NCBI GenBank assembly: GCA_964610105.1
Contig: CAZSUU010000003.1
Span: forward strand, 18,417-82,416
Length of the DNA: 64,000 nt
From: an uncultured Verrucomicrobiota bacterium
GTDB lineage: Bacteria > Verrucomicrobiota > Kiritimatiellia > PWTM01
Direction: 5' to 3'
Part shown: piece after piece, positions 700-58,520 of the stretch
Layout of the letters: each line of letters opens with the position of its first letter
Position numbering within the stretch: the stretch's first letter is position 1
Made by a program: the position numbers and the translations under genes
Notes under the pieces: model-generated
What the model saw: only the letters and a program-made list of their open reading frames with translations
Database searches by the model: none
What the model was told of the DNA's origin: nothing

Positions 700-2428
700 A
701 GTCCGCGACCTCCACGATCATCTTCTCGATCTGGCCCTCGACCGCCGCGAACTCCGCCGCCTTCTGCTCGACGCGGTTCCAGTCCTTCGTGACCTGGGTC
801 AACTTGAGGAAGAACCGGCGCGCGGCGTCCTTGTCCGCGAATTTCATGCGGGTCTTGAGGATCTTGTGGATGCGCCCGAACACGTACCGCTGGCGCTCGG
901 CGGGGGTCGCCGCGTCGACCTCGTGGTAGGCATCCTGCTGCAGGTACACCGCGTCGACGTACTCCGACTTCAGGTAGGTCACGAAGTCGTCGACGGTGGT
1001 GCCCTCCTCGCCGACGACCTTCATCATCTGGTTGACATCGCTGCCCTCGCCCAGCGTTCGCCGGGCGAACGCCACCTGCTCGGCATCGACGACCCCGGTG
1101 TACTTGCTCCAGCTTTCGAGCGGGTTGATGGCCGGGTAGCGGCGCTGGTCGGACCGCTCGCGGGACAGGCCGTGGAACGCGCCCACGACCTTCAGCGTGG
1201 CCTGCGTCACCGGCTCCTCGAAGTTGCCGCCGGCGGGGCTGACCGTGCCGCCGATCGTGACCGAACCCAGGGCGCCGTCCTTGAGCTTCACGATCCCGCC
1301 GCGTTCGTAGAAGGCGGCGATCACCGATTCCAGGTACGCCGGGAAGGCCTCTTCGCCGGGGATCTCCTCGAGCCGGCCCGACATCTCGCGCAGGGCCTGC
1401 GCCCACCGGGAGGTGGAGTCGGCCAGCAGGAGGACGTTCAGCCCCATCTGCCGGTAGTACTCGGCGATCGTGACCGCGGTGTACACGGAGGCCTCGCGGG
1501 CGGCGACGGGCATCGAGCTGGTGTTGCAGATGATCAGCGTCCGTTCCATCAGGCTCTTGCCCGTCCGCGGATCCGTGAGCGCCGGGAACTCGCGCAGGGT
1601 CTCCACGACCTCCCCGGCCCTCTCGCCGCAGGCGGCGATGATGACGATGTCCACCTCGGCGTACCGGCTCGTGATCTGCTGCAGGACGGTCTTGCCGGCC
1701 CCGAACGGCCCGGGAATGCAGTACGTGCCGCCGCGCGCGACGGGGAAGAAGGTGTCGATGATGCGGACCTTGGTGACCAGCGGTTCGGTCGGGCGCAGCC
1801 GCTCGGTGTAGGCCCGGATGGGCATCTTCACCGGCCACCGCTGGAAGAGGCGGATGTCGCGGAGATGATCCTCCTCGTCGCGCACGCGACAGACGACGTG
1901 ATCGACGGGATACTCGCCCGCCGGGGCGACCTCCTCCACCTTCAGGGTCCCCCGCAGGCCGAAGGGGACCATGATGCGGTGTTCGAAGATCCCTTCCGGG
2001 ACCGAACCGACCTTCTCGCCGGCAGACACCCGGTCACCCGGCTTCGCGGAGGGCGTGAACGCCCACGTCCGCGCCCGCGGCAGGGCCTCCATGTACTCGC
2101 CCCGCTTGAGGAAGAACCCGTGTTTCGCGGCCAGCTCGGGGAGGGGATTCTGCAGGCCGTCGAAGACCTGGGTCAGCAGGCCCGGCCCCAGCTCCACCGA
2201 GAGCATCTCGCCCGTGAACTCGATCCGGTCGCCCTCCTTGAGGCCGGTGGTGTCTTCGAACACCTGCATCTCGGCATAGCGCCCGCGAATGCGGATGACC
2301 TCCGACTTCAGCCTCTGCCCCGCGCCGGCGACGGCGAAAGCCACTTCGTTCTGTATGACCGGCTTCTCGAATTCGACCGTGAGCAGGTTGCCGTTCACCC
2401 CCACGATCCGACCGATGTTCTCACTCAT
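692..2428 (-). CDS. atpA: V-type ATP synthase catalytic subunit A
   Basis: Walker [10 protein letters not shown]; N-terminus [20 protein letters not shown] matches the family start. The ORF track begins at 2485, but the first 19 codons are low-complexity. Confidence 0.9.
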
Positions 2429-2520
2429 GACTCGCTCGCTTCGCTTGCCTGGGCCGGACCCCGGAGCGCCGGAATTGAGGATCAACCCCGGGGACGGCCG
2501 GTCTCAACCCAAGGTGTTCT

Positions 2521-9133: not shown

Positions 9134-12100
9134 TCATTGTGCGCGCCCCTCACCCGGGCGGGGGTTCTGCCCCGGGACCGGCTCCACCGCGAGCCAGCAG
9201 GGGTGGCCGTTGAGATCCTGCGCCGACGCCCCGACGGGCGGTTCGCCTTCGTCCCACCCGGCCTCGACCGCCAGGGTCTCGGCCGAGATGTAAACCCGGT
9301 GGGCATCGAACGCCACGCGCACCCCCGCGTCGCCGCCGCACCGCAGGCGGATCCGCTGCGTGACCTCGAAATCCGCGGCCTTGCGCAGGTTCTGCACGCG
9401 GTTGACGATCTCGCGCGCCAGACCCTCCGCGACGAGCTCGGGCGTCAGCGCCACCTCCAGCGCGACCACGATCTCGCCCTCGGACCCGACGGCCAGGCCC
9501 TGCTTCGGGACCCTCTCGATGAGGATGTCGCCCGCGCCGATCTCCACCGCGTGGTCGCCCGCCTGCAGGGTCAGCGTCCCCCCCCCGCGGATCCGCTCGA
9601 TCTCGGCGGCATCCAGGTTGCGGATCACGGCGGCCACCTTCTGCATGGCGGAACCCACGCGCGGACCGAGGACCTTGAAATTCGCCTTGGCGCGCAGGTG
9701 GGCCAGCGCGCCCTCGTCGCGATTGAACCACACCGCCTTCACGTTGAGCTCGTCGGCGATGACCTCCTTCAGCGCCCGCAGCCGTTCGAGAACCGCGGGG
9801 TCGTGGCACACGATGTGCAGGCCGGCGAGGGGCTGCCGGACCTTCAGGTCGTGCTGCACCCGCACCTGCCGCCCGAGGCTGACCGCCGTCATGGCCGCCT
9901 CCATCTGCTCCTCCAGCGCGGGGTCGCGACGGCGCCCGTCGCTGACGGGGTAGTCGCACAGGTGGACGGAGACGGGCATGTCATCGGTGCGCAGGTTGGC
10001 GTGGATGGCCTCGCTGACGAACGGGACGAACGGGGCGGCGATCCGGCTCAGCCGGAGCAGGACCTCGTACAGCGTGGCGTAGGCCTCCGCCTTGTCCGCG
10101 TCGTCCGACGACTTCCAGAACCGGCGGCGGCTGCGGCGGATGTACCAGTTGGTGAGATCCTCCAGGAACCGCACGAACGGTCGGACCGCCTGTTGCAGGT
10201 CGTACCCGTCCATGGCCGTCACGACCTCCTCCGTCAGGCGGTCGAGCGCGCTCAGGATCCACCGGTCGAGCAGGTTGGAGGGCGGCGCCGCCTCCCCTCC
10301 TCCGCCGCTTCCGTTCCGCGGCGCCGGCCGCCAGCCGTCCACCCGCGCGTAGGTCACGAAGAAGGTGTACGCGTTCCACAGGGGGATGAGCAGCTCGCGC
10401 AACGCGTGCTTCACCCCCTCCTCGGAGAAGCACAGGTCCTCCGCGTGCACCACCGGGGAGTTGATCATGTAGAGCCGGAGGGCATCGGCCCCGTAGGTGT
10501 CGAGGATGTGCGCGGGGTCGGGGTAGTTCTTCAGGCGCTTGCTCATCTTCTGGCCGTTCTCGGCCAGGATCAGGCCGTTGACGACCACGTTGCGATAGGC
10601 GCTGCGGCGGAAGAGGGCCGTCGAGAGGACCAGGAGCGTGTAGAACCACCCCCGCGTCTGGTCCAGTCCCTCCGCGATGAAGTGCGCCGGGAAGAACCGG
10701 TCCAGCTCCCCGCCCCGCTCGAAGGGGAAATGCTGCTGCGCATAGGGCATCGCGCCGGACTCGAACCAGCAGTCGAGGACTTCCGGCGTGCGGCGGTAGA
10801 GCTTCCCCTTCCGCGTGAAGGTGACGCGGTCCACCACGTGCTTGTGAAGGTCGTTCACCCTCGTTCCGGAGAGGTCCTCGAGCTCCCGGATCGAGCCCAC
10901 GCAGATCGTGTCCGAGCCGTCCTCGGCCACCCAGACCGGGATGCACGATCCCCAGAAGCGATTGCGGCTGATGTTCCAGTCCTTCGCCTCGCGCAGCCAG
11001 TTCCCGAAGCGCTTGTCGCCCACGTAGGAGGGCACCCAGCGCACGGTGTCGTTGCTGGCGACGAGCTGCTCGCGCAGGTCCTCGACGCGCACGTACCACG
11101 CGTCGATGGCCCGGTAGATGAGCGGCGTGTCGGTGCGGTCGCAGTAGGGGTAGCTGTGCACGATCGTGCCCTGGTGAACCAGCCGCCCCTCCTCCTTCAA
11201 CCGCCGGACGATCGCCTTGTCGGCGTCCTTGCAGAACCGGCCTCGGTAGGCCGGCACCGCGTCGGTGAACCGGCACTCCGCGTCCAGGTAGTCGACCAGC
11301 GCGATCCCCGCGGCGCGGCACACGCGGAAGTCGTCCTCGCCGTAGGCCGGCGCCATGTGCACGATGCCGGTGCCGTCCTCCGTCGTGACGAATCCGTCGG
11401 TCAGCACGCGGAAGGCGCCCAGATGCCCCGCGAAGTCGGGGAACATCGGTTCGTACCGCCAGCCCGTCATGTCCGAGCCGCGGTAGCGCCGGAGCACCTC
11501 GTACTGGTCCGCCTGCTTGTAGTAGGCGGCCAGTCGCGCCTCCGCCAGCACGTACACGTTCCCGTCGGCCCTGTCCCGCACCGCGGCATACGCGATGTCC
11601 GGCCCGACGCACAGCGCCAGGTTGCCGGGCAGCGTCCACGGGGTGGTCGTCCAGATCAGCGCGAAGGCCGGCCCGCCCGAGGTCACCGCCGGATCCGCCT
11701 CGGTCAGGCGCAGCCGGACCGTGACCGCCGGATCCTGCACCTCGCGGTAGTTGCTGCCCGCCTCGAAGTTGGAGAGCGGGGTCGTGAGCTTCCAGCTGTA
11801 GGGCATGATCCGGTACGACTTGTAGATCCGGCCCTGGTCCCAGAGCTGCTTGAACAGCCACCAGATGGTCTCCATGAACGGGAGATCCATCGTCTTGTAG
11901 TCGTGGTCGAAATCGACCCAGCGCCCCATGCGCGTCACCGTCTTCTTCCATTCGCGGGTGTACCGCAGGACCATCGAGCGGCAGGTCTCGTTGAAGACGT
12001 CGATCCCCTTCTCGACGATCGCGGCGGCCCCCGCCAGCCCCAGCTGCTCCTGGGCGAGCGCCTCGATCGGCAGACCGTGGCAGTCCCAGCCGAAGCGCCG

Positions 12101-12340: not shown

Positions 12341-12445
12341 GGCGGCACCCTTTTTGATCGCGAAAAACGAGCCGTTAGCATAGGTTTACCGGCGTTTTCA
12401 TTTCAAGCACGAACGACGCGGACGCACGCCACGGGAGGCACGGAC

Positions 12446-13798
12446 ATGAACGGAGACCTGAGCGAGCTCGAGCGAACGCTGTCGGACTTCGACCCGGCGA
12501 AGCGCCGCCGCGCCCTGGAGGAGCTGGCCCGCGGCCTGCCGTCGGGCGAGATCCCGGTGGAACCCGCGGGACACGATGTCAATCTCCACTGCCACACCTT
12601 CTTCTCCTACAATCCGTACGGCTACTCCCCCTCCCAGTTCGCATGGCTCGCCCGCCGGAAGGGCCTGGCCGTGGCCGGGATCGTGGACTTCGACGTCCTC
12701 GACGGCGTGGACGAATTCATCGAGGCCGGCCGCCTGCTGGGATTGCGGACCTGCGCGGGCGTGGAGAGCCGGGTCTTCGTGCCGGAGTTCGCGACGCGCG
12801 TGATCAACTCGCCCGGCGAACCGGGCATCGCGTACCACATGGGCGTCGGCATGCCGCGCACGGCCCCCCCGGCGGAGCTGACGCCGTTCCTGAACGGGAT
12901 GCGCTCGACCGCCGCGAACCGCAACCGCACGCTGGTCGAAACGGTGAACCGGCACCTGGCGCCGGCCGCACTGGACTACGACCGCGACGTAGTCCCCCTG
13001 ACGCCGGCCGGCAACGCCACCGAACGCCACATCTGCGAGGCCTATGCCCGGAAGGCCCGGGAGGTCTTCGGCGGGGAGCAGGCCCTCCGGGCGTTCTGGG
13101 TGGAGAAACTCCGCGTCGACGAATCGAAGCTCGACCTGCCGGACGGCCCGAAACTGCAGGCCGCCATACGCTCGGCCACGATGAAGAAGGGCGGCGTCGG
13201 CTACGTGCAGCCCGGGGCCGGTTGCTTCCCGACCATGGCGGAGATGAGCCGGTTCGTCCTCGCGGCGGGAGGCATTCCGACCCTGACGTGGCTGGATGGG
13301 CTGTCCGAGGGGGAGCAGGCGATCGATGAGCTGATGGACGTGGCCGAGGCGTGCGGAGCGGCCGCGCTGAACATCATACCCGACCGCAACTTCACGCCGG
13401 GCGTCAGGGACCACAGGCTGGAGAACCTCTACGAAATCGTCGGGCGGGCCACGCGACGGCGGTGGCCGATCGTGGTCGGCACCGAGATGAACAGCCCGGG
13501 CAACCGGTTCGTCGACCAGTTCGCGTCGCCGGAGCTGCACCCGCTGGTTCTGTACTTCCTGCGGGGGGGCCGGATCGTGTACGCCCACAGCCAGATGCAG
13601 CGGGAATCGGGCATGGGGCTCCTGAGCGACTGGGCGCGCCGCCGTTTCCCCGACGCCGCATCCCGCAACAACTTCTTCGAGACCATCGGCGTCCTGCTCA
13701 AACCCGGCCGCGAGGCGGTGCTGGCGAAGCTCAGCGCCGCCATGACGCCGGGCGAGGTGCTCGACGCGATCCTCGTCGACCGCGGCTGCTGCGGATAG
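12446..13798 (+). CDS. PHP-domain (polymerase/histidinol-phosphatase family) metal-dependent phosphoesterase
   Basis: 450 aa, N-terminal HCHTFFSY motif typical of the PHP fold. Divergent from ileS. ATG at 12446 inside the 1577-aa antisense artefact ORF. Confidence 0.65.
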   Translation: MNGDLSELERTLSDFDPAKRRRALEELARGLPSGEIPVEPAGHDVNLHCHTFFSYNPYGYSPSQFAWLARRKGLAVAGIVDFDVLDGVDEFIEAGRLLGLRTCAGVESRVFVPEFATRVINSPGEPGIAYHMGVGMPRTAPPAELTPFLNGMRSTAANRNRTLVETVNRHLAPAALDYDRDVVPLTPAGNATERHICEAYARKAREVFGGEQALRAFWVEKLRVDESKLDLPDGPKLQAAIRSATMKKGGVGYVQPGAGCFPTMAEMSRFVLAAGGIPTLTWLDGLSEGEQAIDELMDVAEACGAAALNIIPDRNFTPGVRDHRLENLYEIVGRATRRRWPIVVGTEMNSPGNRFVDQFASPELHPLVLYFLRGGRIVYAHSQMQRESGMGLLSDWARRRFPDAASRNNFFETIGVLLKPGREAVLAKLSAAMTPGEVLDAILVDRGCCG

Positions 13799-15110: not shown

Positions 15111-15306
15111 GAAGTCCGGCCGTCACCGGCCCCTTCCGCGGACCCGGTCATGCTCCCGGGTCTGGCCCGCCAGGTCAAGCGAAGGGAGGACATGGCCTGG
15201 TCGGAATGGCATGCTCCTCGGACGCCCGCACTCATGAAACGCGGTGTGGACACCGCGTCCCCACCCCGGGTCCGGCGGCGGGCTTGTGTCTACAGACGCC
15301 CAACGG

Positions 15307-16815
15307 TCAGATGATGTCCACGACCACGTCGTCCGCCTGCTTCTCCGTCGGGGCGTCGTCGATCTTGATTTCCTTGTAGGTCGGCAGGAAGCGGTAGTAG
15401 ACCATGAGGCTCAGGGCGCTGAACTCGGTCCCATAGACGGGGCCGTATCCCCGCTCCTCCTCGCCCTGCGGCGTCCAGCTCCCGTCGGCGTTCTGCCGCT
15501 CGATCATGACCTTCGCGAAGGAGTTGTTCCAGTTCTCCCACGTGCTCTTGCCCTTGTGGAACTTCGCCTGCGTCATGTAGTACCAGGCGTACAATTCCCG
15601 CTTCACCCCCTCCGGGTCGGTCCAGTCGCACCGCAGGGGCTCCATGGCCTTGAGCGCGCCTTCCACCTGGTCGGAGTTCCCGTGACCCAGCAACTGCAGG
15701 CACAGGGTTCCAATGGCGGTACAGGCCCACGTGGGCCCCGAATCCTTGCCCGGCTCCGGCGCGTATCGGAACTTCCCGCTGCCCGCGTCGTAGTTCATCT
15801 TGAAGCCGTTCACGCACCTCTCCATCGCCTCCTTCAGGCCCGGAACATCCGCCCCGGCGATGTAGGCCGCCTTCATGGCCTGCGCCTGCCAGCCGGCCAC
15901 CGAGGTGTCGCGTCGGCCGTTCTTGGCGTACCCGTAGGTGTAGCCGCCCGTATCCTGCATGCCCGCGATGATGTACGAGACCGCCTTCTCCATCACCACG
16001 CGAAGCGAAGGAATCCGGGTCAGCGCGTAAGCCTCGCACGCGGCATACGCGGCGATCCCGTTGGCGTAGGCATTCAGCCCGCCTCCGGTGCCCGACCCCG
16101 CCTTGAACGCGCCGTTGTCCTCCTGCTGGCTGACCAGGTACTTGATCGCCCGGTCGACGGTCGGCCCGTACCGCTCGGAGGTGTGCGTCTCGCCGTGCGA
16201 CAGGAAGCAGAGCAGCCCGAGCCCGGTCATGGCGACCTTGTTCCTCGCCCCGCCCGTGCCTTCCCACGAACCGTCGCCCAACTGGTGGTTCTTGAGCCAC
16301 TCCAGGGCCTTGATCACCGCCGCTTCCGTGGCCTGGCCATACCGGCGATTGAACTCGCCCAGCGAACGCGCCCGGCCGCCGGCGGACCGCCCGGCGAACA
16401 GTCCCTTCATGATCAGCGGGCTCTGGGCCTCGGCGCTGATGTCCAGCGCCGCCAGGTCCTCGGGCTGTGCACTGGGAGGCGCCTCGACCTCCGGCGGCGT
16501 TTCCGTCAGCATCTGCGCGTCGGGGGGGGTGATCTCGATCTCCACGTCCTTCAGCTCGTCCAGCCTCTTCTCGAACTCCTCCAGGTCCTTCGCGTCGGGC
16601 TCCACCACCGTGACTTCGATGTTCGCGGCATCGGGCCGGTTCGGCATGATCACCAGGTTGATGAGGAGGATGACCAGGCCGATGTGCAGGATGACGGAAC
16701 CCGTGGGACCCCAGAGGTGGTCGATGATCCGCTGGAGGTGGTAATTGACGTGCTTCTGGAGGCCGGCATCGGCGTCCGGCCGCTCTCTCTGCTTCTTTTC
16801 CTGCTCGTCTGCCAT
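15307..16815 (-). CDS. TonB-like N-terminal anchor (SxxxH TM helix + Pro/Glu-rich linker) fused to prenyltransferase/squalene-oxidase-repeat alpha/alpha-toroid domain
   Basis: TM helix GSVILHIGLVILLINLVIMP carries S-x3-H as in the E. coli TonB TM helix (SVCIH). It is followed by a PPDAQMLTETPPEVEAPPSAQPED linker and repeated DGSW/NGAF toroid motifs. Immediately downstream of exbB-exbD-exbD. Confidence 0.7.
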   Translation of the reverse strand: MADEQEKKQRERPDADAGLQKHVNYHLQRIIDHLWGPTGSVILHIGLVILLINLVIMPNRPDAANIEVTVVEPDAKDLEEFEKRLDELKDVEIEITPPDAQMLTETPPEVEAPPSAQPEDLAALDISAEAQSPLIMKGLFAGRSAGGRARSLGEFNRRYGQATEAAVIKALEWLKNHQLGDGSWEGTGGARNKVAMTGLGLLCFLSHGETHTSERYGPTVDRAIKYLVSQQEDNGAFKAGSGTGGGLNAYANGIAAYAACEAYALTRIPSLRVVMEKAVSYIIAGMQDTGGYTYGYAKNGRRDTSVAGWQAQAMKAAYIAGADVPGLKEAMERCVNGFKMNYDAGSGKFRYAPEPGKDSGPTWACTAIGTLCLQLLGHGNSDQVEGALKAMEPLRCDWTDPEGVKRELYAWYYMTQAKFHKGKSTWENWNNSFAKVMIERQNADGSWTPQGEEERGYGPVYGTEFSALSLMVYYRFLPTYKEIKIDDAPTEKQADDVVVDII

Positions 16816-16897
16816 ATGCCACCGCCTTTCCGTCCGTCCGCCGGGTCGGCTCAAACCCTCTTCCGCGTTCGCGCGCGGACTGGACAGGAGCGATTCG

Positions 16898-17308
16898 TTA
16901 ATTCGTGCTGATCACCGACAGGTTCTTCAGCTCCGCCTTGGCCGACAGGTCGAGGACCTTGATCAGTCGCTCGTGGTGCGAGCCGCCGGAGCACATGATC
17001 AGGATGGTCTGCGTCTTGTCGAGCGCCGCCAGCTCGCCCAGCAGCTTGTCGAGCCCGGCCACGTCGACCGGCCGGTCGTTGATCGTATAGCCGTCGGGAA
17101 AGATGTTGATGCGGATGAGCTTGGGCGGGGTCTGCAGCTTCTCCTGCTTCGCCTCGGGCGAGGGGCGCGAGACGTCCAGGTGGGCGAAAACGTCCATGGG
17201 CTTGATGGTGACAATGAAGTACACCAGCAGCTGGAACACGACGTCGATCATCGGCGTCATGGGCAGTTCCGCGGGCGGGGTCTTCGATTTGCGTCGTTTG
17301 CGCGCCAT
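16898..17308 (-). CDS. exbD: Biopolymer transport protein ExbD/TolR (paralog 2)
   Basis: 136 aa, N-terminal TM MTPMIDVVFQLLVYFIV, ExbD family. Confidence 0.85.
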   Translation of the reverse strand: MARKRRKSKTPPAELPMTPMIDVVFQLLVYFIVTIKPMDVFAHLDVSRPSPEAKQEKLQTPPKLIRINIFPDGYTINDRPVDVAGLDKLLGELAALDKTQTILIMCSGGSHHERLIKVLDLSAKAELKNLSVISTN

Positions 17309-17320
17309 GGTATGTCCTGC

Positions 17321-17746
17321 CTATTTCGGTGGAGCCTTGGCGGCTTCCTTGATGGCGGAAAACTTGATCTTCCACAGCCCCGCCTGCGAGCAGGCGTCGA
17401 TCACGCGCCGGACGTCGTCGTGCCGCACGAGGGCGTCCGCGCGGATGACCACGGGCAGGCTCTGGGTGTGCCGCGCCACCTGTCCCCGCATGAACGACCG
17501 CAGCGCCGGCAGCGTCATCCGGGAACGGGCGATGTACACCCGTCCCTGGTCATCCACATCGATCGTGATGGTGCGCGGGTCCTTCTTCTCCACCGCCCTC
17601 CCGTGGGGGGCCAGCGCCATGCGCAGGTCCATCTCCAGTTGCTGGTTCTGCATGGCGATCGTCACGATGAAGAAGATGATGAGCTGGAACACGACGTCGA
17701 TCATCGGCGTCATGTTCATCCCCGTTTCGTCCGACCGTTTTCGCAT
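17321..17746 (-). CDS. exbD: Biopolymer transport protein ExbD/TolR (paralog 1)
   Basis: 141 aa, MTPMIDVVFQLIIFFIV TM segment. Confidence 0.85.
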   Translation of the reverse strand: MRKRSDETGMNMTPMIDVVFQLIIFFIVTIAMQNQQLEMDLRMALAPHGRAVEKKDPRTITIDVDDQGRVYIARSRMTLPALRSFMRGQVARHTQSLPVVIRADALVRHDDVRRVIDACSQAGLWKIKFSAIKEAAKAPPK

Positions 17747-17787
17747 GACTCACTCTCCGAAGCCCGGCGGCCCGGGATGGCCGGGGA

Positions 17788-18576
17788 TCACTCTTCTTCG
17801 GACACGACCTCGACGTTTCGCAGCGACTTGATCAGGTCCAGCGTCTTCGTCTCCATGGAGAGGATGATCTTGGTCGCGAGATTCCGGAAGTAGGTATAGA
17901 ACCCGATGGCCGGGATGGCCACGATGAGGCCGGCGGCCGTGGTCCAGAGCGCCTGGCCGATGTTCTTCGCCAGCATGGCGGTCTGTCCCGATCCCGCCTC
18001 GCCGAACGCCAGGGTCATGAAGGCGTAGATCATGCCCTGCACCGTGCCCAGCAGGCCGAGCATCGGGGCGAGATTGGCGCAGACGTTCAGGTAGGCGACC
18101 CGCTGCATCAGTTTCTCGGTCTCCAGGTCGGCCGCGACGCCGACGACATCCTGGATCACGTCGAACCCCTCCTGCACGTTGGAGAAGCCCGCCGAGAGGA
18201 TGCTGGCCAGGGGCGTCGGGCGATCCTCGCAGTACTTCAGCGCCTTCATCACGTCGCCCTGCTTCATGGCCTCGCTCACCTGGGCCACGAGCTCGTCGGG
18301 GGCGATTTTCTTCTCCTTGATGGTCACGAACGAGTCGATGATCAGCGCCGCCGCCGCCACCGAGGCGGCGCCCAGGGCCATCCAGAGAATGACGCCCAGC
18401 CAGCCGCTGCTGGTCACCACCGACCAGAAGCCCATGCTCTGGGCGCTGGGCGCGGCCGCGGCCGCGGTCGCGGTCGCCGGCGCATTGGTGACCATGTCCT
18501 GGGCCAGGCCCGTGGCCGCGCACATCACCAGGCCCGCGAACCATAAAGCAGTCCGAAGCACCGACTTCATCTTCAT
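17788..18576 (-). CDS. exbB: MotA/TolQ/ExbB proton-channel protein with signal-peptide-like N-terminal extension
   Basis: Start at MKMKSV (ATG 18576); three TM helices, conserved C-terminal TM pair (GLLGTVQGMIYAF, AMLAKNIGQALWTTAAGLIVAIPA). Confidence 0.85.
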   Translation of the reverse strand: MKMKSVLRTALWFAGLVMCAATGLAQDMVTNAPATATAAAAAPSAQSMGFWSVVTSSGWLGVILWMALGAASVAAAALIIDSFVTIKEKKIAPDELVAQVSEAMKQGDVMKALKYCEDRPTPLASILSAGFSNVQEGFDVIQDVVGVAADLETEKLMQRVAYLNVCANLAPMLGLLGTVQGMIYAFMTLAFGEAGSGQTAMLAKNIGQALWTTAAGLIVAIPAIGFYTYFRNLATKIILSMETKTLDLIKSLRNVEVVSEEE

Positions 18577-18625: not shown

Positions 18626-19402
18626 CTAGTACTTGCCCCTCGCCGCCGCCGCCTCGGGGCTCTGCGGATAGTCCTGCGCAAGCTGCTGGTACTTCTCTTT
18701 CGCTCGCGGATCGCGCAGCTTCGAGAGGGCGTTGGCCGCGCGGCTCAGGCCCGCGGGCATGATGTCCCTCTCTCGCTCGTAGAAATAAATCATACGCAGG
18801 TAGTCCCGGATGGCCAGTTCCATTTTGTTCTCCTCGGCCCGGATGTCGCCGCGCATGAGCAGGGCCCGGGCCGCGTCCGTCCGGGGACCCTCTCCGATCA
18901 GCTTCTTCAGCATCGGCTCCAGCCGGGCGAACTGCTTGGCCGCCAGCAGACCGTTGCGGTAGGCCCATCCGAACTCGGGATTCGTCTCCAGCGCCGGGTA
19001 GTCCCGGATCAGGGTTTCGTACACGGCCACGGCGTCGGCGCCCTGTCCCTTCGCCTCGTAGGCGCGGGCCAGCTGAATGCCGGCCACCTGGTCCCACTCG
19101 AGGAACCGGAGGTCGGTCACGACCTGCTTGAGCACGGGAATGGCCTCGTCGTACTTCTTCGCCGCCACCGCCGCCACCGCGGCGTCGATCTTCTCCGGCT
19201 TGTCCGCCACGGCGCGCGTGTACTGGTCCTTGGTCAACTGGAGCGAGACGCCGTCGGACATGATGAGGGTCACCGTCCCGTCCGCGCGCGCCCGGATCTG
19301 GACGCCCACCTTCTGTTGGCCGTTCTTGAGGATCACATAAGGGGCCGCCTGCGCGCTCAGCACCGCCGCCCCCATCGCCATCAGCCATGCCAGTTTCTTC
19401 AT
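18626..19402 (-). CDS. Secreted TPR-repeat protein
   Basis: Signal peptide MKKLAWLMAMGAAVLSAQA, TPR-like helical repeats; directly upstream of exbB on the same strand. Confidence 0.7.
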   Translation of the reverse strand: MKKLAWLMAMGAAVLSAQAAPYVILKNGQQKVGVQIRARADGTVTLIMSDGVSLQLTKDQYTRAVADKPEKIDAAVAAVAAKKYDEAIPVLKQVVTDLRFLEWDQVAGIQLARAYEAKGQGADAVAVYETLIRDYPALETNPEFGWAYRNGLLAAKQFARLEPMLKKLIGEGPRTDAARALLMRGDIRAEENKMELAIRDYLRMIYFYERERDIMPAGLSRAANALSKLRDPRAKEKYQQLAQDYPQSPEAAAARGKY

Positions 19403-19436: not shown

Positions 19437-22328
19437 TCACCTGGACGCGCCCCCCGCCGCTCCTCCGGCCGGACCCGGGGCGGAGGGCGGCGTCGCCGTG
19501 GCCGCCTTCATGCGCGCATCGCTCATCTTCCGGCGGATCTCGGCGAGCTTCGGGCTCTCCGGGAACTTCGCCACATACGCTTCGCACTTCTCCACGACCT
19601 TCTCGAACCGGCCGGCCTCTTCGTACAGGGGGATCACCCGAAGGAAGGCCTGTTCCACCAGCGGCCGCGTCGCCGCCCCCTTCTCGTCGCCGAGCAGGAC
19701 CACGCGTTCGTACGAGGCCAGCGCCGCCTTCATCGCGTCGTCCGCCTCGCCCGCCCGGCCCGCCTCCTTCGCCCTGCGGTACGCCTCGTACTGGATCGTG
19801 CCGAGCTCGATGTTCGCCGTGTCCCGCGTGGCCGGATCGCTCGCGAACTTGAACACGTCCGTCAGCTCCGCGACCGCCTCCGGCAGTTTGCCCGCATCGC
19901 GGTACGCGCGCCCGAGGGTCAGCCTGGCATCGTAGAAGAGCCCCGACTTGGGATAGCGCTGCAGCATGTCGTCGAGGTTCCGGATGGCTTCCTCGAACTT
20001 CTGGGTCCGGTAGGCCGACATGCCGAGGCCGTAGAGCGTGCGCTCGAGGATGGCCCGGTCCTCGGTCTTGCTCGCCAGCACCTTCCTGAAGGCGGCCGCC
20101 GCCTCCCCGTCGCGCCCCGCGTCGAAGAACGCCTGCGCGACCCGGACCAGCTGGTCGGGCGTGAAGGTCTTCGAAGGCTGGTCCGCGGGTTCGCTGGCCA
20201 TCATCTTCTCGAAGGCCTCCAGCGCGATGTCGAACTTCTTGATCTTCACGGCCGCCATGATCAGCGAGTACCGCGCGCTCTTGCCGTCCTCGGAGTTCGG
20301 GTACTTCTTCTGCAGGTCGTTGAACGTGGTCGAGGCCGCCTCGGTCTGCCCCAGTTCCAGGTGGATGGTGCCGATGACGTTCATCGCCTTCGGCGCGAGG
20401 TCCGACGCGGGATACGCGGCAAGGAACCGGGCGAGGGTCTCGATCGCCGCCTGCCGCAGCTTCGGCACCGCGTCGGCCGGTTCCGCGACGCGTGAGAGAC
20501 CGTAGCCGATGAAGAACTGGCACTTCTCGCGAAGCTCGTCGACCTTCTTCACCTCGTCGCCCGTGGTGGCGTACGGATTGCCCTCCTTCGCCTCCACCCA
20601 CGAGGCCAGCGTGCGGTATTCCTTCACCGCCCGATCGAACTGGTCCAGCCGCATGTAGCAGTCGGCCAGCGTCGCCTGGACGATCGCCCGCTGGTGCTGC
20701 GGCGGACTGTCCTGGATGTATTTCGCGAACACCTCGGCCGCCCCGGCGTAGTCCTTCGCCTCGTACTTGGCCCAGCCGATGCGGTGCAGCGATTTCAAGT
20801 AGTACTGGTCCCGCGGGAAGTTCTTCACCAGGAGGTCGAGGTACTTCTGCGCGTCGGCCTTCTGGCCGGCCCTGTCGAGCATGCCCGACAGCGTGTAGAG
20901 CACCGACGGGGTCTTTTCATGCTTCGGGAAGCCCTCGACGAACGTCTCGTAGAAGACGATGCACGTCTTCTCGTCCTTCGCGTCGAAGAAGTGCTTCGCG
21001 ACCGCCAGGAGCGCCAGCCCGGCCTGCGGATCGGTCCTCCCGGCCCGCTCCGCGATCTCCCACGCCCCCGCATCCAGCTCGCGGGGCCGGTTCAGATGGG
21101 CCCAGCACAGCAGCAGATTGGTCCACTGCGGCGCCGCCGGGGCATCGGGGAACATGTTGAGGATGCGCGAATACAACCGCGCGGCCTCCGTGTAGTTCTT
21201 CTGGCCGTACATCACGTCCGCCTGCCGCACCTGGGCCTCCACCGCCTTCCGCGCATGCGCCTTGAAGTCGATGGGCTTGACCGTGACCCCCATCTGCCCG
21301 AGCTTCGCGATCAGCTTCTCGCCGCGCAGGCCGGCCTCCGGCCCCCAATCGCTGTCGCCGTACTTGGCGAACACGTTGATGTAGTGCTGGGCCGCTTCCT
21401 TGATCAGGAGGACCTTCTTCTGTTCGTCCTTCGTGGAGGCCGCTTCCTTCTCGTACAGCTCCGCCAGGAGGAAGCGCGCGCTGGCCAGCGGGCTCGCCGC
21501 GAGCTGCCCCTCCTCCTTGAGGATGTCGTCCAGCCCCGTCATGATGTCCAGGTTCTGCCGTATGAGCTTCTGAGCCGCCGCCGGGTTCCCGCGCATGATC
21601 TCGATGTTGGCCATGGTCATGATCGAATGGCCGAAGGCCACGTCCATGCCGCCTTCCCGGTCCCACTGCAGCTCCTCGCAGAGCTTGAACGCCCGGTTCA
21701 GATGGGCCTTCTTCTTGCCCTCGTCGCCCTCCTTCTTCGCCGCGCGGACCAGGAGATTCGCCAGCTCGAAGCGGATCCGGCGCGAGATACCCGGATCGGG
21801 CTTGCACTTGAGCACCTTCTCGTAGGCATCACCCGCCGCGGCCAGATCGCCCGCCGTCTCGAGGAGCTGGCCGAACCGGTAGGCGGAGTCCATGTAGACG
21901 CGTTTCAGGTCGGGGTCGGACGGGACCTGCGTGCCGTACTGCTTGAAGAAATCGACGTACAGCCTCTTCGCCCGGTCGATGTCGCTGAACCGGTACGCGT
22001 AGTTCGCCACGCTGAGCCGGGCCGCCTGCGCCTTGGGGCTCGCGGCGGGCATCGACTTGAGCAGCTCCTCGGCCTGGTCGAACTTGCGCCGGGCGGCCAT
22101 GATCTCGATCTGGACCATCTTGGCGCGCTCTTTCTCGCCGGGATTGAGGCGAAGCAACTCGTCGACGAGCCGCTCGGCATAATCGGCGAAGTTGTCCTCC
22201 ACCAGCCGGGAGGCGAACTCGAACTCCCGGTCGATCTCCGTTGGCGCCTGGGCCCGGGCCGGCCAGCCGCCCGCGACCACCCCTGCTCCAACGAGGAACC
22301 CCGTCAGTGCCGCGCGTATTTGGACCAT
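19437..22328 (-). CDS. Large exported TPR-repeat protein (964 aa)
   Basis: Start at MVQIRAALTGFLVGAGVVAGGWPARAQA (ATG 22328), tens of TPR/Sel1-like repeats; first gene of the TPR-TPR-exbB-exbD-exbD-toroid cluster. Confidence 0.75.
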   Translation of the reverse strand: MVQIRAALTGFLVGAGVVAGGWPARAQAPTEIDREFEFASRLVEDNFADYAERLVDELLRLNPGEKERAKMVQIEIMAARRKFDQAEELLKSMPAASPKAQAARLSVANYAYRFSDIDRAKRLYVDFFKQYGTQVPSDPDLKRVYMDSAYRFGQLLETAGDLAAAGDAYEKVLKCKPDPGISRRIRFELANLLVRAAKKEGDEGKKKAHLNRAFKLCEELQWDREGGMDVAFGHSIMTMANIEIMRGNPAAAQKLIRQNLDIMTGLDDILKEEGQLAASPLASARFLLAELYEKEAASTKDEQKKVLLIKEAAQHYINVFAKYGDSDWGPEAGLRGEKLIAKLGQMGVTVKPIDFKAHARKAVEAQVRQADVMYGQKNYTEAARLYSRILNMFPDAPAAPQWTNLLLCWAHLNRPRELDAGAWEIAERAGRTDPQAGLALLAVAKHFFDAKDEKTCIVFYETFVEGFPKHEKTPSVLYTLSGMLDRAGQKADAQKYLDLLVKNFPRDQYYLKSLHRIGWAKYEAKDYAGAAEVFAKYIQDSPPQHQRAIVQATLADCYMRLDQFDRAVKEYRTLASWVEAKEGNPYATTGDEVKKVDELREKCQFFIGYGLSRVAEPADAVPKLRQAAIETLARFLAAYPASDLAPKAMNVIGTIHLELGQTEAASTTFNDLQKKYPNSEDGKSARYSLIMAAVKIKKFDIALEAFEKMMASEPADQPSKTFTPDQLVRVAQAFFDAGRDGEAAAAFRKVLASKTEDRAILERTLYGLGMSAYRTQKFEEAIRNLDDMLQRYPKSGLFYDARLTLGRAYRDAGKLPEAVAELTDVFKFASDPATRDTANIELGTIQYEAYRRAKEAGRAGEADDAMKAALASYERVVLLGDEKGAATRPLVEQAFLRVIPLYEEAGRFEKVVEKCEAYVAKFPESPKLAEIRRKMSDARMKAATATPPSAPGPAGGAAGGASR

Positions 22329-22482
22329 GGTTCTCAAGCTCCGCAAAGACACCCATCCGGTGCCGCCGGCCTGCGCCACGGGCTACAGATACCACACCGC
22401 CAACCCTCGCCGTCAAGCGCCATCGGCCCCGCCCAGAGAATGCCGCGTCAAAGCCAGTGCGATATCTTCCGCGCGAGGGCGG

Positions 22483-23454: not shown

Positions 23455-24435
23455 CTAGCCTCTGGCAAAACGCCGGCGGAAGATCATCGCCAGGCCGGCC
23501 AGGATGCTCAGCGCCACCGTGGTCGGTTCGGGAATGGAGAACAACAACTGATCCGTGGTCAGCGCCGTGTCCGAGATGCGCACCTCATCTATGAAACCGT
23601 ACGCCCGGTCGCCATGTCCGCCCGCATACAGCCCGCGCATGACCGAGAAATTGCCCCCCGTCCAGTCCCCGCCGGAGGAGCCCGCGGCGTTGGTGAGCGC
23701 CAAGTTCGGACTGCCGCTGGTGGTGAGATCGGTCGAAGCGACCAGCGTGTAATTGACGTCGCCGTTCTCGATGTTCTTGTAGTAGAGCGAGAGCATGGAG
23801 CCGTCGCACACCGCCGCCGCCGCCTGCCACTGGCCGTCTCCGGAATTCGGATTCACAAAGCCCTGAACCGTGCTGGCGGCCGAGATGGCCTCGTGCCAGT
23901 ACCCGCTGACATCGCAGTACTTGATCGCCAGCGACTCGTCAGGCTGGATCTGGAAATAGAGCGCCGACAGATCGCCGTTGGGCGTCGCAACGTATCGTCC
24001 GTCGCGGCCGACCAGCGTCCGATGCCCATCGGTCAGTTCCGGCTGGAACGCCGCCTCGATCGTCCATGCGGTGGGTTGCCAAGTCTGCAGCCCGATCGCC
24101 CACAGGCCGGGGTAGCTGCCCGCGTTTTGGATGCTGAAATTGTTGGCGTCACCGGTCTGGGGAACCGTCGCACCCGCCACGTCGGTACGGAAATACTCGT
24201 TCGCCCACGAGTCGGCGCTCCACGCCGACAGTGCGTTGCCATTCCCCGAGCTGTCCGGCACGTCCGCATTGAATACACCGTTGCCGGTCGGATGAGGTAT
24301 CAGCGTATCCGCCGGCCCCGCCTCGAACCGCCAGTAGGCCATGGTGGCCGCGTTGGCCGTCATCGCGCACAGAAGCGACGCGCCCATCAAGGCCGCCGCG
24401 TACACCACCACTCCCGTCTTACGTGTCTGTTTCAT
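23455..24435 (-). CDS. PEP-CTERM-anchored secreted protein, LamG/concanavalin-like
   Basis: Signal peptide, then C-terminal PEPTTVALSILAGLAMIFRRRF (PEP motif + TM + basic tail). Start at MKQTRK (ATG 24435). Confidence 0.75.
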   Translation of the reverse strand: MKQTRKTGVVVYAAALMGASLLCAMTANAATMAYWRFEAGPADTLIPHPTGNGVFNADVPDSSGNGNALSAWSADSWANEYFRTDVAGATVPQTGDANNFSIQNAGSYPGLWAIGLQTWQPTAWTIEAAFQPELTDGHRTLVGRDGRYVATPNGDLSALYFQIQPDESLAIKYCDVSGYWHEAISAASTVQGFVNPNSGDGQWQAAAAVCDGSMLSLYYKNIENGDVNYTLVASTDLTTSGSPNLALTNAAGSSGGDWTGGNFSVMRGLYAGGHGDRAYGFIDEVRISDTALTTDQLLFSIPEPTTVALSILAGLAMIFRRRFARG

Positions 24436-24541
24436 CTTCCGGTCCCTCTCCGTATTTGCCTCGCCGGCTTCTCTTTTGACCCCGGGCCACGGGCACACCC
24501 GCCCGTTTCTCGCGCGCAGTCTTTCACGCGGACCGGCGGCC

Positions 24542-28514: not shown

Positions 28515-31500
28515 CTACTTCGGCATGATCTCCCAGGCCCGCGCCGATTTTGCGGGGAGGACGATCTCCCGGCGCAGGACGGGCGGAGTGGGCGCGGCTT
28601 CTCCCGCTTCGTCGGCCGAGAGGGTCCGCACGGTCAACCCCGACGTCGGCAGTCCGCACGCGCCGGCGTCGAATTCAAGCCGGGCGGCCAGGGAGGTCTC
28701 TCCCACGTTCACTAAGAACAGCGCCACACGGTTCGACCGCGGCAGATGCCATGCGCCGGTCAGTAGGGCGTCGGTGGTCACCGGCCAGACGCCGCTCCAC
28801 TGCCAGTCGGCGGTGACGCGGGGCATGTCCGCCGCGCCGGAACCGGCGATCTCCAGACGGGGCGGCCGCAGCATCCGGCCGGCGACGAAGTAGTCGACGA
28901 GCCGGGCGCGCAGGCGCACGACCTCGCGGAGAAAGGCCAGGTTGTCCTTCTCGCGGACGACCCCGGGATGGAGCCAGCCGATCTGCTCGCCGAACACGAG
29001 CTGCTGCCCCGCCTTCATCCGCAGCGCGAGGTCCTTGGTCGGTCCCTCGCGATAGGCCCGACCGAACATCTGGATGGCCCCCCCGTAGATGGCGGGAAAG
29101 GCCGGGACCTGGCCGTCGTACTGCCAGTGCCAGGTCAGATAGCCGTCGAAGCAGTGGGTGTAGGGCTCGCCGTTGCACTCGGTGGTCAGCATGCGCCCCT
29201 CCGGCATACCCCGCCGGATGCGCCCCAGAAGGTCCCAGTAGCTCTCCGTCCACCAGTGCCCTCCGCCGGGCGGATGACCGTGCGACCCGTCCATGCACAG
29301 CACCGGCTGCGCCGCGGCCACCTGGTCGATGTATACGCCGTCGACGCCGCACTCGTTCATGAGCCGCAGGACGATCTCGCGGACGCGGGACTTCCACAGG
29401 CCGGTGGACGGACACATGACGGCGAGGCGCACGGGGCTGCCGTCGCTCTCCTTGCTGCCATAGGTTTCGATGAAGGGTTGGCCGCCCGTGTCCTTCGCGG
29501 TCGCGGGCTGGGCAACCGACGAGAATTCTCGCTCCTCCGTCCCGCGGTCCCGCGTATCCCACAGGCGTCCGTTGATGTACGGCATGACGCGCACCCCCGA
29601 AGCCTGCAGCTCCGCGACGCCCGCCGCGAAGCCGTCCTTCGCGGGGAAGTAGTGCGGGTAGTCGTTGTCGAAGGGGATCTGGTGCCAGTTGTACCAGTGC
29701 AGGCCGACCGGAAGCCCCAGGGCGGCCTGGAATTCCTTCGTGATCGCCACCACCTCCGCCGCGCTTCCTCCGGTCATCGCCCAGCACGACAGCTCGCGCA
29801 TCCACCGGGGCGTGTCCTTCCTCCCCGCGGCTCCGACCTCCGGCTGCCAGCGCGCCTCCCGACCAACCCACTCGCGGTACATCGTCGCGGCATCGAACCA
29901 GTCGCCGCGCAGCAGCCTCCAGATGCCCGCCCCCTCGAGCCGGTAGCCGTTGCCCGGCCTGCCCATGCCAGGGGCCGGGATCGAGAATTCCAGATCGACG
30001 GCGCGCGCGTCGGGCCGGCTCTCGACGCGCAGGTCCTTGGTGCCGCCATACGGGTCATGCAGGGCGACGTACACTCCGGCGCCGGTAGAACGGTCATAGG
30101 CGGCCATGAACGGCATCGCGGTCCAGCCGGAGGGATACGTCCCGGCAAACCGCAGCGGACGCGTCCACGCGCCGCGCGCCACCTCGCCGGCGCCGCGGGG
30201 CAGGAAGACCTCGGCGGCCGGACCGGGTTCCGCCACGGAGAGCCGGGGGAAGGCGGTCGTCCACACGCTCCAGGGGGCCTCGACACCGGTGACCGCGATC
30301 GACCAGGAGATCCCGTTGCGGCGCCGTTCCGGCTGGGCTTCCACGGCGACCGACAGGCGGCCCAGCCGTTCGTCGGTCGGATGGGACCAGCGCAGGACGA
30401 GCCCGCCGACCAGGGATCGCCGATTCTCCACCCTCCCCCACCCCCGGTCGGCGCAGAGCACGGCCTCCTCCGCGGAACCGGCGCGGCGAAGGGTGACCTG
30501 GAAGAGCGGCAGCGAATCCCGCGCGAGGAGCGGCCGGCCGGCGTCGAGATCCATCAAGTGCAGTAGGCGGAAGCCGTCCGCCGTGCGCTCCAGCGCCAGG
30601 GCGAGATCGCCGGCGCTCAGCGAGACCCAGTCGGACGGAAACCGCCCGTCCGCCGCGCCGAGGGCGTCCCGGTATCGCCCGCGCCGCTCCAGCTGCTCCG
30701 CCGCGGAGAGGCGCCATACGTCCTCGCGCGGGGCGGCGCGACCGGTCCGCGCCGCTCGCGCCCGGCTTTCCCGAAGCGTGCGGCGCAGCGAGCCGATCGT
30801 GACCGTCACGGGGATGGCGCTCGGCGCCGGCCTCGACGAAGCCGCGCGAATCGCCTCCAGGGCCTTCTCTCCGCTGCCCATCCACAGCCAGGCGGCGACC
30901 TCGCGCCTCGTCCCGCCGAACTCCGTCCACGCCAGGTCGCTGTGGGCATGAAGGTAGCTGCCGTAGCCCCCGCGGCCGTCGTAGACCAGGAACGGCCCCC
31001 CGTCGAACATGCCGATCGCGTTCGTCCCGTCGTGAAGGGCGGCCCAGTCGGAGCAGCGGACCGAGGCCTGCGCGCCCGTGATGACCCCCGCGGCTTCGGG
31101 ACCGGCCCCCGCCCACCTCGGGAACGCATCGTCGGGATAGTTCATCTCGAGGAAGTGCCACTCCTTCCACGCAAACGGCTGCCGCTGCCGCTGGATGGCG
31201 GTCACGTACACGAGCGGCCGATCGTGAAAGTAGAACCAGTCATAGACCGCGGTCGGTTTCGAGTCCGGATGGATCCCGCCGCCGAGATACCGGCCCGCCA
31301 CCCGGACGACCGTGCACAGGGAGCCGGTCGAGGCGAGTTCAACCGTCGGCTCGGGATCGTCGCCCAGCCGGAAGCTCCCCAGCTCCCGGTGGTGGGTGCG
31401 GTCCTGCCAGCGCACCGATTCGAACGCCTTGCCCGTCGCGGGAAAGTCGATGCGCGAGGGCAGTCCGCCCTCGCGCCCGACGGTGTGGACAATGCGGTAG

Positions 31501-31886
31501 TGAGGCGTGGAAACCACCCCGCCGAAAGGCGCGCGGTCACGCCCCGGGCCGCGGCCGAAGGAGAGCCGGACATCGTCGTCGAAACCCGGAGGCAGGCGCA
31601 GGAGGGCGGTCCCCGACACGCGGTGCTCGGGATCGAACTCCGCGTCGGGGACGAACTGGAACGGGACGGGCTGTCCGCCCCGCGCGGTCGCGGCCCCGAC
31701 TCCGCCCGGATCGACCCGGCCGATCCCGCACCACCGGACGGCGGCGGTCAGATCGACGCGGGCCGCCACCAGGTCGTGCCCGGGCGGGCCGTCGAACGCG
31801 AGAAGAACCTCGTCGGCCCGAAGCGGACCGACGGCTCCCGACAGGATGAACACGCCGGCGAAGAAGCCGCGGAACCGTCGCATCAT
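28515..31886 (-). CDS. Very large secreted glycoside-hydrolase-like protein (1123 aa, family unassigned)
   Basis: Signal peptide MMRRFRGFFAGVFILSGAVGPLRA; TIM-barrel-like segment GVDGVYIDQVAAA...; no precise family could be assigned by eye. Confidence 0.65.
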   Translation of the reverse strand: MMRRFRGFFAGVFILSGAVGPLRADEVLLAFDGPPGHDLVAARVDLTAAVRWCGIGRVDPGGVGAATARGGQPVPFQFVPDAEFDPEHRVSGTALLRLPPGFDDDVRLSFGRGPGRDRAPFGGVVSTPHYRIVHTVGREGGLPSRIDFPATGKAFESVRWQDRTHHRELGSFRLGDDPEPTVELASTGSLCTVVRVAGRYLGGGIHPDSKPTAVYDWFYFHDRPLVYVTAIQRQRQPFAWKEWHFLEMNYPDDAFPRWAGAGPEAAGVITGAQASVRCSDWAALHDGTNAIGMFDGGPFLVYDGRGGYGSYLHAHSDLAWTEFGGTRREVAAWLWMGSGEKALEAIRAASSRPAPSAIPVTVTIGSLRRTLRESRARAARTGRAAPREDVWRLSAAEQLERRGRYRDALGAADGRFPSDWVSLSAGDLALALERTADGFRLLHLMDLDAGRPLLARDSLPLFQVTLRRAGSAEEAVLCADRGWGRVENRRSLVGGLVLRWSHPTDERLGRLSVAVEAQPERRRNGISWSIAVTGVEAPWSVWTTAFPRLSVAEPGPAAEVFLPRGAGEVARGAWTRPLRFAGTYPSGWTAMPFMAAYDRSTGAGVYVALHDPYGGTKDLRVESRPDARAVDLEFSIPAPGMGRPGNGYRLEGAGIWRLLRGDWFDAATMYREWVGREARWQPEVGAAGRKDTPRWMRELSCWAMTGGSAAEVVAITKEFQAALGLPVGLHWYNWHQIPFDNDYPHYFPAKDGFAAGVAELQASGVRVMPYINGRLWDTRDRGTEEREFSSVAQPATAKDTGGQPFIETYGSKESDGSPVRLAVMCPSTGLWKSRVREIVLRLMNECGVDGVYIDQVAAAQPVLCMDGSHGHPPGGGHWWTESYWDLLGRIRRGMPEGRMLTTECNGEPYTHCFDGYLTWHWQYDGQVPAFPAIYGGAIQMFGRAYREGPTKDLALRMKAGQQLVFGEQIGWLHPGVVREKDNLAFLREVVRLRARLVDYFVAGRMLRPPRLEIAGSGAADMPRVTADWQWSGVWPVTTDALLTGAWHLPRSNRVALFLVNVGETSLAARLEFDAGACGLPTSGLTVRTLSADEAGEAAPTPPVLRREIVLPAKSARAWEIMPK

Positions 31887-31958
31887 GATCTCGATCCTCC
31901 CCCGGGTGCGGCCGACGGCGGTCGCACGCGGAAAGGGTACCTCCGCGCGCCGCCCGCA

Positions 31959-32699: not shown

Positions 32700-32814
32700 G
32701 TTTCAGCCATCCGTACCGAGCTTGTTTTCCGGTCCGTTCCCCGCGACGCGTCACGCCCTGCGCCGCCCGCGGCCGACCGCCCCGCCCTCGCCGGGCGTCG
32801 AGCTCCGGCGTCGT

Positions 32815-35955: not shown

Positions 35956-35969
35956 GCTCTTCTCCCTAA

Positions 35970-55672: not shown

Positions 55673-55716
55673 CCAGCCTCAGGCAGTCGTGCGCACCCGA
55701 ACCGGGGGGCAGCTTC

Positions 55717-58511: not shown

Positions 58512-58520
58512 GACCAGGTC

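Follow-up and report, generated by a model that had tools for sequence, protein, structure and literature searches.

A toroid-headed protein with a TonB-type anchor, encoded next to exbB and two exbD genes in Kiritimatiellia and related bacteria, is a probable force transducer

A six-gene module carries a toroid protein at the position of tonB

The DNA analysed here, referred to as the window, comprises 64,000 nucleotides (64 kb) of contig CAZSUU010000003.1 from an uncultured Verrucomicrobiota bacterium of the class Kiritimatiellia. Six genes lie on its minus strand between 15307 and 22379, separated by intergenic gaps of 12-82 bp. They encode a large tetratricopeptide repeat (TPR) protein, a second TPR protein of 258 amino acids (aa), an ExbB/TolQ-like protein, two ExbD/TolR-like proteins (ExbD-1 and ExbD-2) and, last, a 502-aa protein (15307..16815) with a TonB-like membrane anchor and a C-terminal alpha/alpha toroid, which is the main subject of this study. 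An alternative TTG start at 16854 would extend this protein to 515 aa; a length of 502 aa is also what gene callers assign elsewhere. A preceding interpretation of the window made from its letters without database searches (the sequence-only reading) had described exbB and two tandem exbD genes without a canonical TonB or TolA, with two TPR genes directly upstream on the same strand. The ORFs (open reading frames) and their TPR matches agree with this gene content, and Pfam scans of the approximately 57 ORFs of the window detected no TonB_C, TolA, TolB, Pal or TonB-dependent receptor. A phmmer search with an approximate sequence of TonB of Escherichia coli gave no match in the window.

The ExbB/TolQ-type proton-channel subunit (17788..18576, minus strand like all genes of the module) has 262 aa when read from its ATG and matches PF01618 with an E-value of 1.7e-26. 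Its ORF runs on to 18681, and the protein has a signal-peptide-like N-terminal extension. The top NCBIfam and PDB matches of this subunit are TolQ, with scores under the family cut-offs, and the motifs GLLGTVQGM and ALWTTAAGLIVAIPA of its transmembrane (TM) helices 2 and 3 align with GLFGTVWGI and ALIATAIGLFAAIPA of a solved TolQ. Both ExbD/TolR-type subunits match PF02472, ExbD-1 (141 aa, 17321..17746) with 2.2e-26 and ExbD-2 (136 aa, 16898..17308) with 1.1e-19, and all three motor genes pass the gathering cut-offs (92.9, 92.8 and 71.1 bits against 22.9 and 25.4 for PF01618 and PF02472). The TM segment of ExbD-1 (TPMIDVVFQLIIFF) bears the conserved Asp, and this subunit can be aligned to the ExbD structures 7ajq and 6tyi, TPFIDV included. 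TPMIDV with the TM Asp is kept in both paralogs, the corresponding segment of ExbD-2 being TPMIDVVFQLLVYF. Since the two ExbD paralogs are only distantly alike (E-value of 1e-10 to each other), a heterodimer is the likely arrangement; all full modules among related loci hold both.

The large TPR protein (19437..22379), encoded by the first gene of the module, is predicted to be periplasmic and has many TPR family matches. It would comprise 980 aa if translated from a GTG; an ATG at 22328 is the likelier start and yields approximately 963 aa with a signal-peptide-like N-terminus. The CpoB/YbgF-type TPR model TIGR02795 matches it with 142 bits across 4 stretches. The 258-aa TPR protein (18626..19402; TPR_6, 2e-10) likewise starts with a signal-peptide-like segment (MKKLAWLMAMGAAVLSAQA) and matches the YbgF-type TPR model with 1.9e-11. 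The position of its gene between the large TPR gene and exbB is kept in related loci.

The anchor helix and a D-box-like strand are conserved

The 502-aa protein has a single N-terminal TM helix (residues 37-56, GSVILHIGLVILL, 16648..16707) with its N-terminus in the cytoplasm. This helix carries S40-x3-H44-x6-L51, the pattern of the SHLS-type helices of TonB and TolA. In an AlphaFold2 model computed with a 91-sequence alignment (mean pLDDT, the predicted local confidence, of 82), it follows a short helix at residues 25-34. Conservation was counted across 91 homologs with identities of 45-67%. Of these, 88 retain GSxxxH and 70 have Leu at His+7, and residues G36, P37, G39, S40 and H44 are invariant or nearly so. 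The helix is preceded by the motif DHLWGPTG; apart from the stretch DHLWGPTGSxxxH the N-terminus is variable. At these identities such conservation argues that the TM motif is not due to chance. The S-x3-H pair pointed out by the sequence-only reading is thus present in the window protein, and it is conserved in orthologs; a lack of such conservation had been named there as grounds for doubt.

Variants of the motif were found among 93 related ORFs. In second tandem copies the Ser is often replaced by Ala or Thr, with the His retained. In three motor-adjacent toroid genes (L030, L045 and L048; approximately 9273-11422 in locus coordinates) the His position is occupied by Asn, and the Ser is lost too, the sequence reading WGPIVGIILNV. 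Asn is said to be the only functional substitute for His20 of E. coli TonB, and for this reason we counted the Asn variants in favour of a transducer function.

A second hallmark of TonB, unnoticed in the earlier interpretation, lies 22 residues past the His. The strand IEVTVVE (residues 66-72, 16600..16620), directly followed by Pro, resembles the D-box or motor box of TonB. The consensus [IV]-E-V-x-[IVM]-[IVM]-[ED] occurs at this offset in 84 of the 91 homologs, with the Pro after the strand in 72. In E. coli TonB, the D-box ISVTMVT-P at His+25 is captured by the ExbD dimer through strand addition (PMC10907165). The window strand fits this D-box in its hydrophobic/polar alternation and its position, and it is predicted to bind ExbD. 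A profile of the anchor matched no PDB sequence at E <= 10; the anchor helix is too short for homology to TonB to be proven at the sequence level.

An acidic linker and a conserved C-terminal strand flank the toroid head

Composition, conservation and the AlphaFold2 model define residues 73-144 (16384..16599) as an acidic, partly Pro-rich linker. Of the Pro/Glu-rich character attributed to it before, the acidic part stood (18 Asp or Glu within 72 residues), and the Pro content turned out to be only moderate (9 Pro). Across homologs the linker has a median length of approximately 60 residues and consists of 30% Asp and Glu, 10% Pro and 5% Lys and Arg. It contains a short helix (residues 75-89), after which it is disordered in the model, with pLDDT below 50 over residues 91-135; a conserved segment, SPLxMKGLFxGRSxxGR, lies within it.

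The protein ends in the strand DDVVVDII-COOH (residues 495-502, 15310..15333; consensus [DE][DE][IV]x[IV]x[IV][ILM]), which falls in the low-pLDDT tail of the model. A strand of this DDVxVEIL type is found at the extreme C-terminus in 70 of the 91 homologs and at most 30 residues from the end in 84. It shows the same alternation as the D-box and resembles Ton boxes. Covariation between the D-box and the C-terminal strand within proteins was not significant (p = 0.06); the shared pattern remains, the comparison being partly circular. The C-terminus might undergo strand addition with ExbD, a TPR protein or a partner in the outer membrane. The third of four tandem toroid genes at one related locus (L007, 8724-9890) encodes a lipoprotein-type toroid whose signal peptide ends in ...LLLSSGC. 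It has neither the TonB-like anchor nor the C-terminal strand, which indicates that the two were lost together.

Residues 145-473 (15397..16383) form an (alpha/alpha)6 toroid of twelve helices modelled with pLDDT above 90, with four QW-like repeats and a conserved set of aromatic and polar residues. A toroid instead of a TonB C-terminal domain, as had been proposed, is confirmed by the AlphaFold2 model, by its fold neighbours and by the lack of any PF03544 (TonB_C) match at E 0.01 in the 502-aa protein. Single-domain class II terpene cyclase-like proteins, prenyltransferases and the thioester-containing domains (TEDs) of alpha-macroglobulins share the (alpha/alpha)6 fold and the QW-like repeats with the window protein, which differs from them in lacking DxDD, the Cys of a Zn site and CGEQ and in Pfam scores under the gathering score. 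A squalene-hopene or other class II terpene cyclase was rejected, as the protein has a single toroid, no DxDD and a TIGR01787 score of 28.6 bits against a cut-off of 322.7. A protein prenyltransferase beta subunit was rejected because no toroid Cys suited to a Zn site is conserved and PF00432 reached 19.7 bits against 26.5. For an alpha-macroglobulin or complement TED, the thioester motif CGEQ is absent from 91 of 91 sequences. As the defining C-terminal or catalytic features were looked for and are absent, the protein falls outside the TonB, TolA, terpene cyclase, prenyltransferase and TED families. Nothing was found to support the function related to isoprenoid lipids that the sequence-only reading had considered: the protein lacks the DxDD, Zn-ligand and thioester motifs.

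The structural neighbours of the toroid are mostly enzymes (terpene cyclases, glycoside hydrolases (GH) of family GH76, 2-epimerases, GH8/GH88), and its dense invariant set of Tyr, Trp, Gln, Arg and Asp residues, typical of a ligand pocket, suggests that it has one. Both features would suit a periplasmic enzyme or binding protein fixed to the membrane, such as a glycan- or polyprenyl-binding toroid, which is co-transcribed with the motor, held by a passive signal anchor and not coupled to it. The missing catalytic motifs of the nearest families speak against such a protein, as does the conservation of GPxGSxxxHx6L and of a D-box-like strand at a fixed offset, which a passive anchor would not be expected to retain at this level of identity. 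Its genomic side is taken up below.

The module is syntenic in PVC bacteria and its putative transducers have exchangeable heads

A protein search returned at least 703 matches to the 502-aa protein, and species-representative genomes hold at least 564 relatives. Synteny was assessed in the best 78 loci. All of these are from metagenome-assembled genomes (MAGs) of the Planctomycetes-Verrucomicrobia-Chlamydiae (PVC) group except one labelled Neomarinimicrobiota, and the nearest belong to Kiritimatiellae, Lentisphaerae and Verrucomicrobiota. The complete six-gene order, with an ortholog of the large TPR gene upstream of the motor, is present in 51 loci, and in 11 more the order is kept up to the contig end; 13 are orphan and 3 uninformative. 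The toroid gene directly follows exbD in 62 of the 75 informative loci, and the association with exbBD in relatives that had been put up for a neighbourhood survey was borne out. Nine loci have two to four toroid genes in tandem after exbD2, and several genomes carry toroid copies at separate loci. Clustering of all ORFs from the 78 loci revealed no other conserved neighbour. The gene after the module is mutL (36 loci) or mutY, an arrangement that we judged to be housekeeping synteny, and tolB/pal-type genes are not conserved near it.

The 13 loci in which the toroid gene is not beside a motor gene, including that of the close homolog P0006 next to a Wzy_C gene, add to the case for a passively anchored protein. 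Yet orphan copies are also a feature of TonB paralogs, and the same type of anchor and tail is found on unrelated VWA and PA14 domains, as described below. Taken together, we regard an uncoupled enzyme or binding protein as very unlikely. P0006 itself (locus L079) is 65% identical to the window protein, and the Wzy_C gene adjoining it is of the O-antigen ligase/polymerase type; sulfatase and GH127 genes lie in its surroundings, with no motor gene within 10 kb. Some orphan toroid paralogs (L039, 9731-11413; L076, 4281-6032; P0107) have an additional cytoplasmic N-terminal extension of 80-100 aa (ELIQKYLDD...EL.ELE..L). To the eye it resembles anti-sigma factors, but it gave no Pfam match.

When 1.84 billion clustered proteins were searched with a 56-column profile of the anchor by itself, no more than 130 representatives matched, mostly toroid proteins or fragments of them. 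Three of the proteins with the same anchor, acidic linker and C-terminal strand have other heads, namely VWA in P0199 and P0201 and PA14 (1.7e-20) in P0245. This implies that anchor and tail are the constant parts of these proteins and that the globular head is exchangeable. VWA proteins with the anchor of the toroid family are rare. Where the context of the VWA and PA14 relatives could be read, they were orphan, one of them in a complete Kiritimatiellota genome; the other contigs are too short to tell. These orphan contexts provide no link between the motor of the toroid family and the published vWA operon discussed next.

Relation to known motor-driven systems

A precedent is given by transducers of PVC bacteria that end in a vWA domain and whose genes belong to TPR-tolQ-tolR-tolR operons (Williams-Jones et al. 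2025, Mol Biol Evol 42:msaf138; PMC12204202). They were searched for in species lacking TonB and TolA, such as Tichowtungia aerotolerans (Kiritimatiellota), and AlphaFold3 put their helix at the TonB/TolA site (PMC12204202). Like the window protein, they combine an SHLS/His TM helix, a motor-box strand, a disordered linker and a globular end other than TonB_C; their genes also lie downstream of a TPR, a tolQ-like and two tolR-like genes and also occur in Kiritimatiellota. In contrast to them, the window protein ends in an (alpha/alpha)6 toroid of approximately 330 residues and has no vWA fold, the anchor sequence of its family is unlike the published Tichowtungia example, its module has two conserved TPR genes, and its family has a conserved C-terminal strand that is undescribed in PMC12204202. 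No toroid, cyclase or squalene-type domain is mentioned in the text or supplement of that study, and a literature search for ExbBD or TonB joined to a toroid, prenyltransferase or squalene-hopene cyclase returned nothing relevant. The toroid-headed protein is therefore best read as an undescribed form of the non-canonical class of force transducers introduced in 2025.

With the Ton system the module shares the order exbB-exbD-transducer, the TM Asp of ExbD, the S-x3-H-x6-L helix, a D-box-type strand approximately 22-25 residues past the His, a disordered linker spanning the periplasm and the occurrence of multiple transducer paralogs. It differs from Ton in lacking TonB_C, in having two different ExbD proteins, an acidic instead of a Pro/Lys-rich linker and obligatory TPR partners, and in that the window holds no TonB-dependent receptor.

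Likeness to Tol-Pal is seen in the motor, which scores best against TolQ/TolR models and structures, in the CpoB/YbgF-type repeats of both TPR proteins and in the SHLS-type transducer helix. The module could accordingly be the Tol system of this lineage, with the toroid protein standing in for TolA and the TPR proteins for CpoB, acting on TolB-Pal or another tether in outer-membrane integrity and constriction. Its location amid housekeeping genes and its seemingly near-universal occurrence in the group, judging by the number of relatives, would suit this function. The 2025 survey found neither TolA nor TonB in Tichowtungia and lists a Lentisphaerae MAG as 'tolQ-tolR-???- No TolA found', placing its tolB-pal elsewhere (PMC12204202). 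On the other hand, the module lacks TolA domain III, TolB and Pal, neither tolB nor pal is present in the window or conserved near the module in related loci, every Tol model score is far under its equivalog cut-off, and the presence of several interchangeable transducer paralogs resembles Ton more than Tol. We therefore consider a genuine Tol system unlikely, although it is an alternative to be taken seriously.

The Agl-Glt core complex of Myxococcus and relatives, which also exists outside gliding bacteria and in polysaccharide degraders (Luciano et al. 2011; PMC3169522), is described as having the same parts in one cluster: one TolQ-like and two TolR-like proteins, two secreted TPR proteins of which one is large and the other smaller, and a bitopic TonB-like protein (aglR/aglQ/aglS-gltD/E/C-gltG). 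By analogy, the module could move or expose a surface component such as an adhesin or polymer, with toroid, VWA and PA14 serving as adhesive or cargo-binding heads; VWA and PA14 are modules typically involved in adhesion or glycan binding, and a gliding-type role was also suggested by the authors of the 2025 study for the vWA transducers (PMC12204202). However, the likeness is one of parts lists, GltG bears FHA and TonB_C domains (PMC3169522) whereas the 502-aa protein has no TonB_C, and in the 78 loci the module has no linked genes for Glt-like barrels of the outer membrane. Moreover, this reading has to account for the lack, to our knowledge, of any report of gliding in this bacterial group. 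An Agl-Glt-like function thus appears quite improbable.

The 502-aa protein as a probable proton-motive-force transducer

Altogether, the 502-aa protein is probably a proton-motive-force transducer that docks on its motor like TonB and TolA, with the six genes encoding one envelope machine of the Ton/Tol/Agl type. Motif conservation, the D-box-like strand, synteny and the vWA precedent all support the proposal of the sequence-only reading that a TonB-type anchor fused to a toroid occupies the tonB position and is driven by ExbBD; we rate such coupling to the motor as rather likely. In the mechanism that we propose, ExbB, probably as a pentamer, and an ExbD-1/ExbD-2 heterodimer would constitute a proton-driven 5:2 motor. 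The N-terminal helix would dock outside the ExbB ring via its Ser-His-Leu face, and the IEVTVVE strand would be captured by the periplasmic domains of ExbD. The acidic disordered linker could then bridge the periplasm, so that the toroid, perhaps together with the C-terminal strand, would grip a target and the motor would pull on it. Both secreted TPR proteins may act as periplasmic partners or scaffolds. Further proteins that combine this anchor and tail with a toroid, VWA or PA14 domain, encoded in tandem or at other sites of related genomes, might share one motor, as multiple TonB paralogs do.

Several observations weigh against this interpretation. Position four of the SHLS motif is Val in the window protein and hydrophobic in the homologs, Ser being found in 0 of 91. 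The linker is acidic and not strongly Pro-rich, and a toroid of approximately 330 residues is far bulkier than the C-terminal domains of TonB or TolA. In 13 of the 75 informative loci the toroid gene lies away from any motor gene, and ORF clustering of the 78 loci yielded no conserved outer-membrane partner near the module. Furthermore, genes with PF03544 and PF00593 have been reported for Pontiella agarivorans, a cultured relative. With TonB_C and TonB-dependent receptor genes reported in some Kiritimatiellales, the motor could additionally or alternatively drive a canonical TonB whose gene lies elsewhere.

Concerning the physiological role of the probable transducer, our guess is either a Tol-type role in maintaining the envelope or an energised process that handles a glycan or protein at the outer membrane. 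A farther-reaching reading, which we hold to be a long shot, is that in PVC bacteria without TonB and TolA the module is the main link between the proton gradient of the inner membrane and the outer envelope. Its transducers would then be cassettes in which a constant docking anchor and an equally constant C-terminal strand of D-box/Ton-box-like character frame a swappable ligand-binding head. The toroid would grip a glycan or lipid-linked polymer, and the 5:2 rotary motor would reel either the polysaccharide or a partner in the outer membrane through the periplasm. If so, it would represent TonB-independent energised uptake or export in specialised polysaccharide degraders.

Proton motors of 5:2 stoichiometry have been reused for very different envelope tasks in the Ton, Tol, Mot, Agl and Gld systems. 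Before 2025, the known side-docking transducers all ended in a small TonB or TolA domain. If our interpretation is correct, a TonB-type anchor with a D-box can drive a large alpha/alpha toroid, and the head of such transducers is exchangeable. The toroid family spans more than 560 species-level PVC genomes, which makes it a candidate for energising outer-envelope processes in Kiritimatiellae, Lentisphaerae and related Verrucomicrobiota, including some lineages without detectable TonB or TolA. These lineages import large sulfated glycans, and an absence of SusC-type uptake genes has been reported for Kiritimatiella glycovorans. The proposed mechanism makes testable predictions for His44, for the D-box and C-terminal strand and for the TPR partners.

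Other features of the window

Downstream of the stop codon of the 502-aa protein, a hairpin (CGCGGTG-tcca-CACCGCG) followed by TTTC was recognised by direct reading at 15225..15260 on the minus strand. It possibly marks the end of the operon; a scan for consensus terminators did not report it. The next gene beyond the module in the window is mutY. A 466-aa ORF of opposite orientation (12398-13798, plus strand) separates ileS from mutY and gave only a sub-threshold match to the PHP domain; its counterpart in the identical contigs L087 and L088 has 450 aa and no Pfam match.

On the other side of the module, the minus-strand gene at 23455-24498 encodes a Laminin_G_3/concanavalin-like protein with a C-terminal sorting signal of the PEP-CTERM type (IPEPTTVALSILAGLAMIFRRRFARG). 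A glycan-degradation cluster follows at 28515-36120 on the same strand; in it, small unannotated genes separate the gene for a 1147-aa DUF6259 protein (3e-97) from that for a protein of the GH106 alpha-L-rhamnosidase type. On the plus strand, positions 55648-63485 hold a cluster resembling type II secretion or type IV pilus systems. It encodes two GspE/PilB-type ATPases in tandem (588 and 581 aa) together with a GspF-type platform protein, and no fewer than three of its genes are of the N-methyl pseudopilin type. Catalytic subunits of a V/A-type ATPase (A and B types) are encoded at the window edge (1-2503, minus strand), adjoining a DUF2764 protein.

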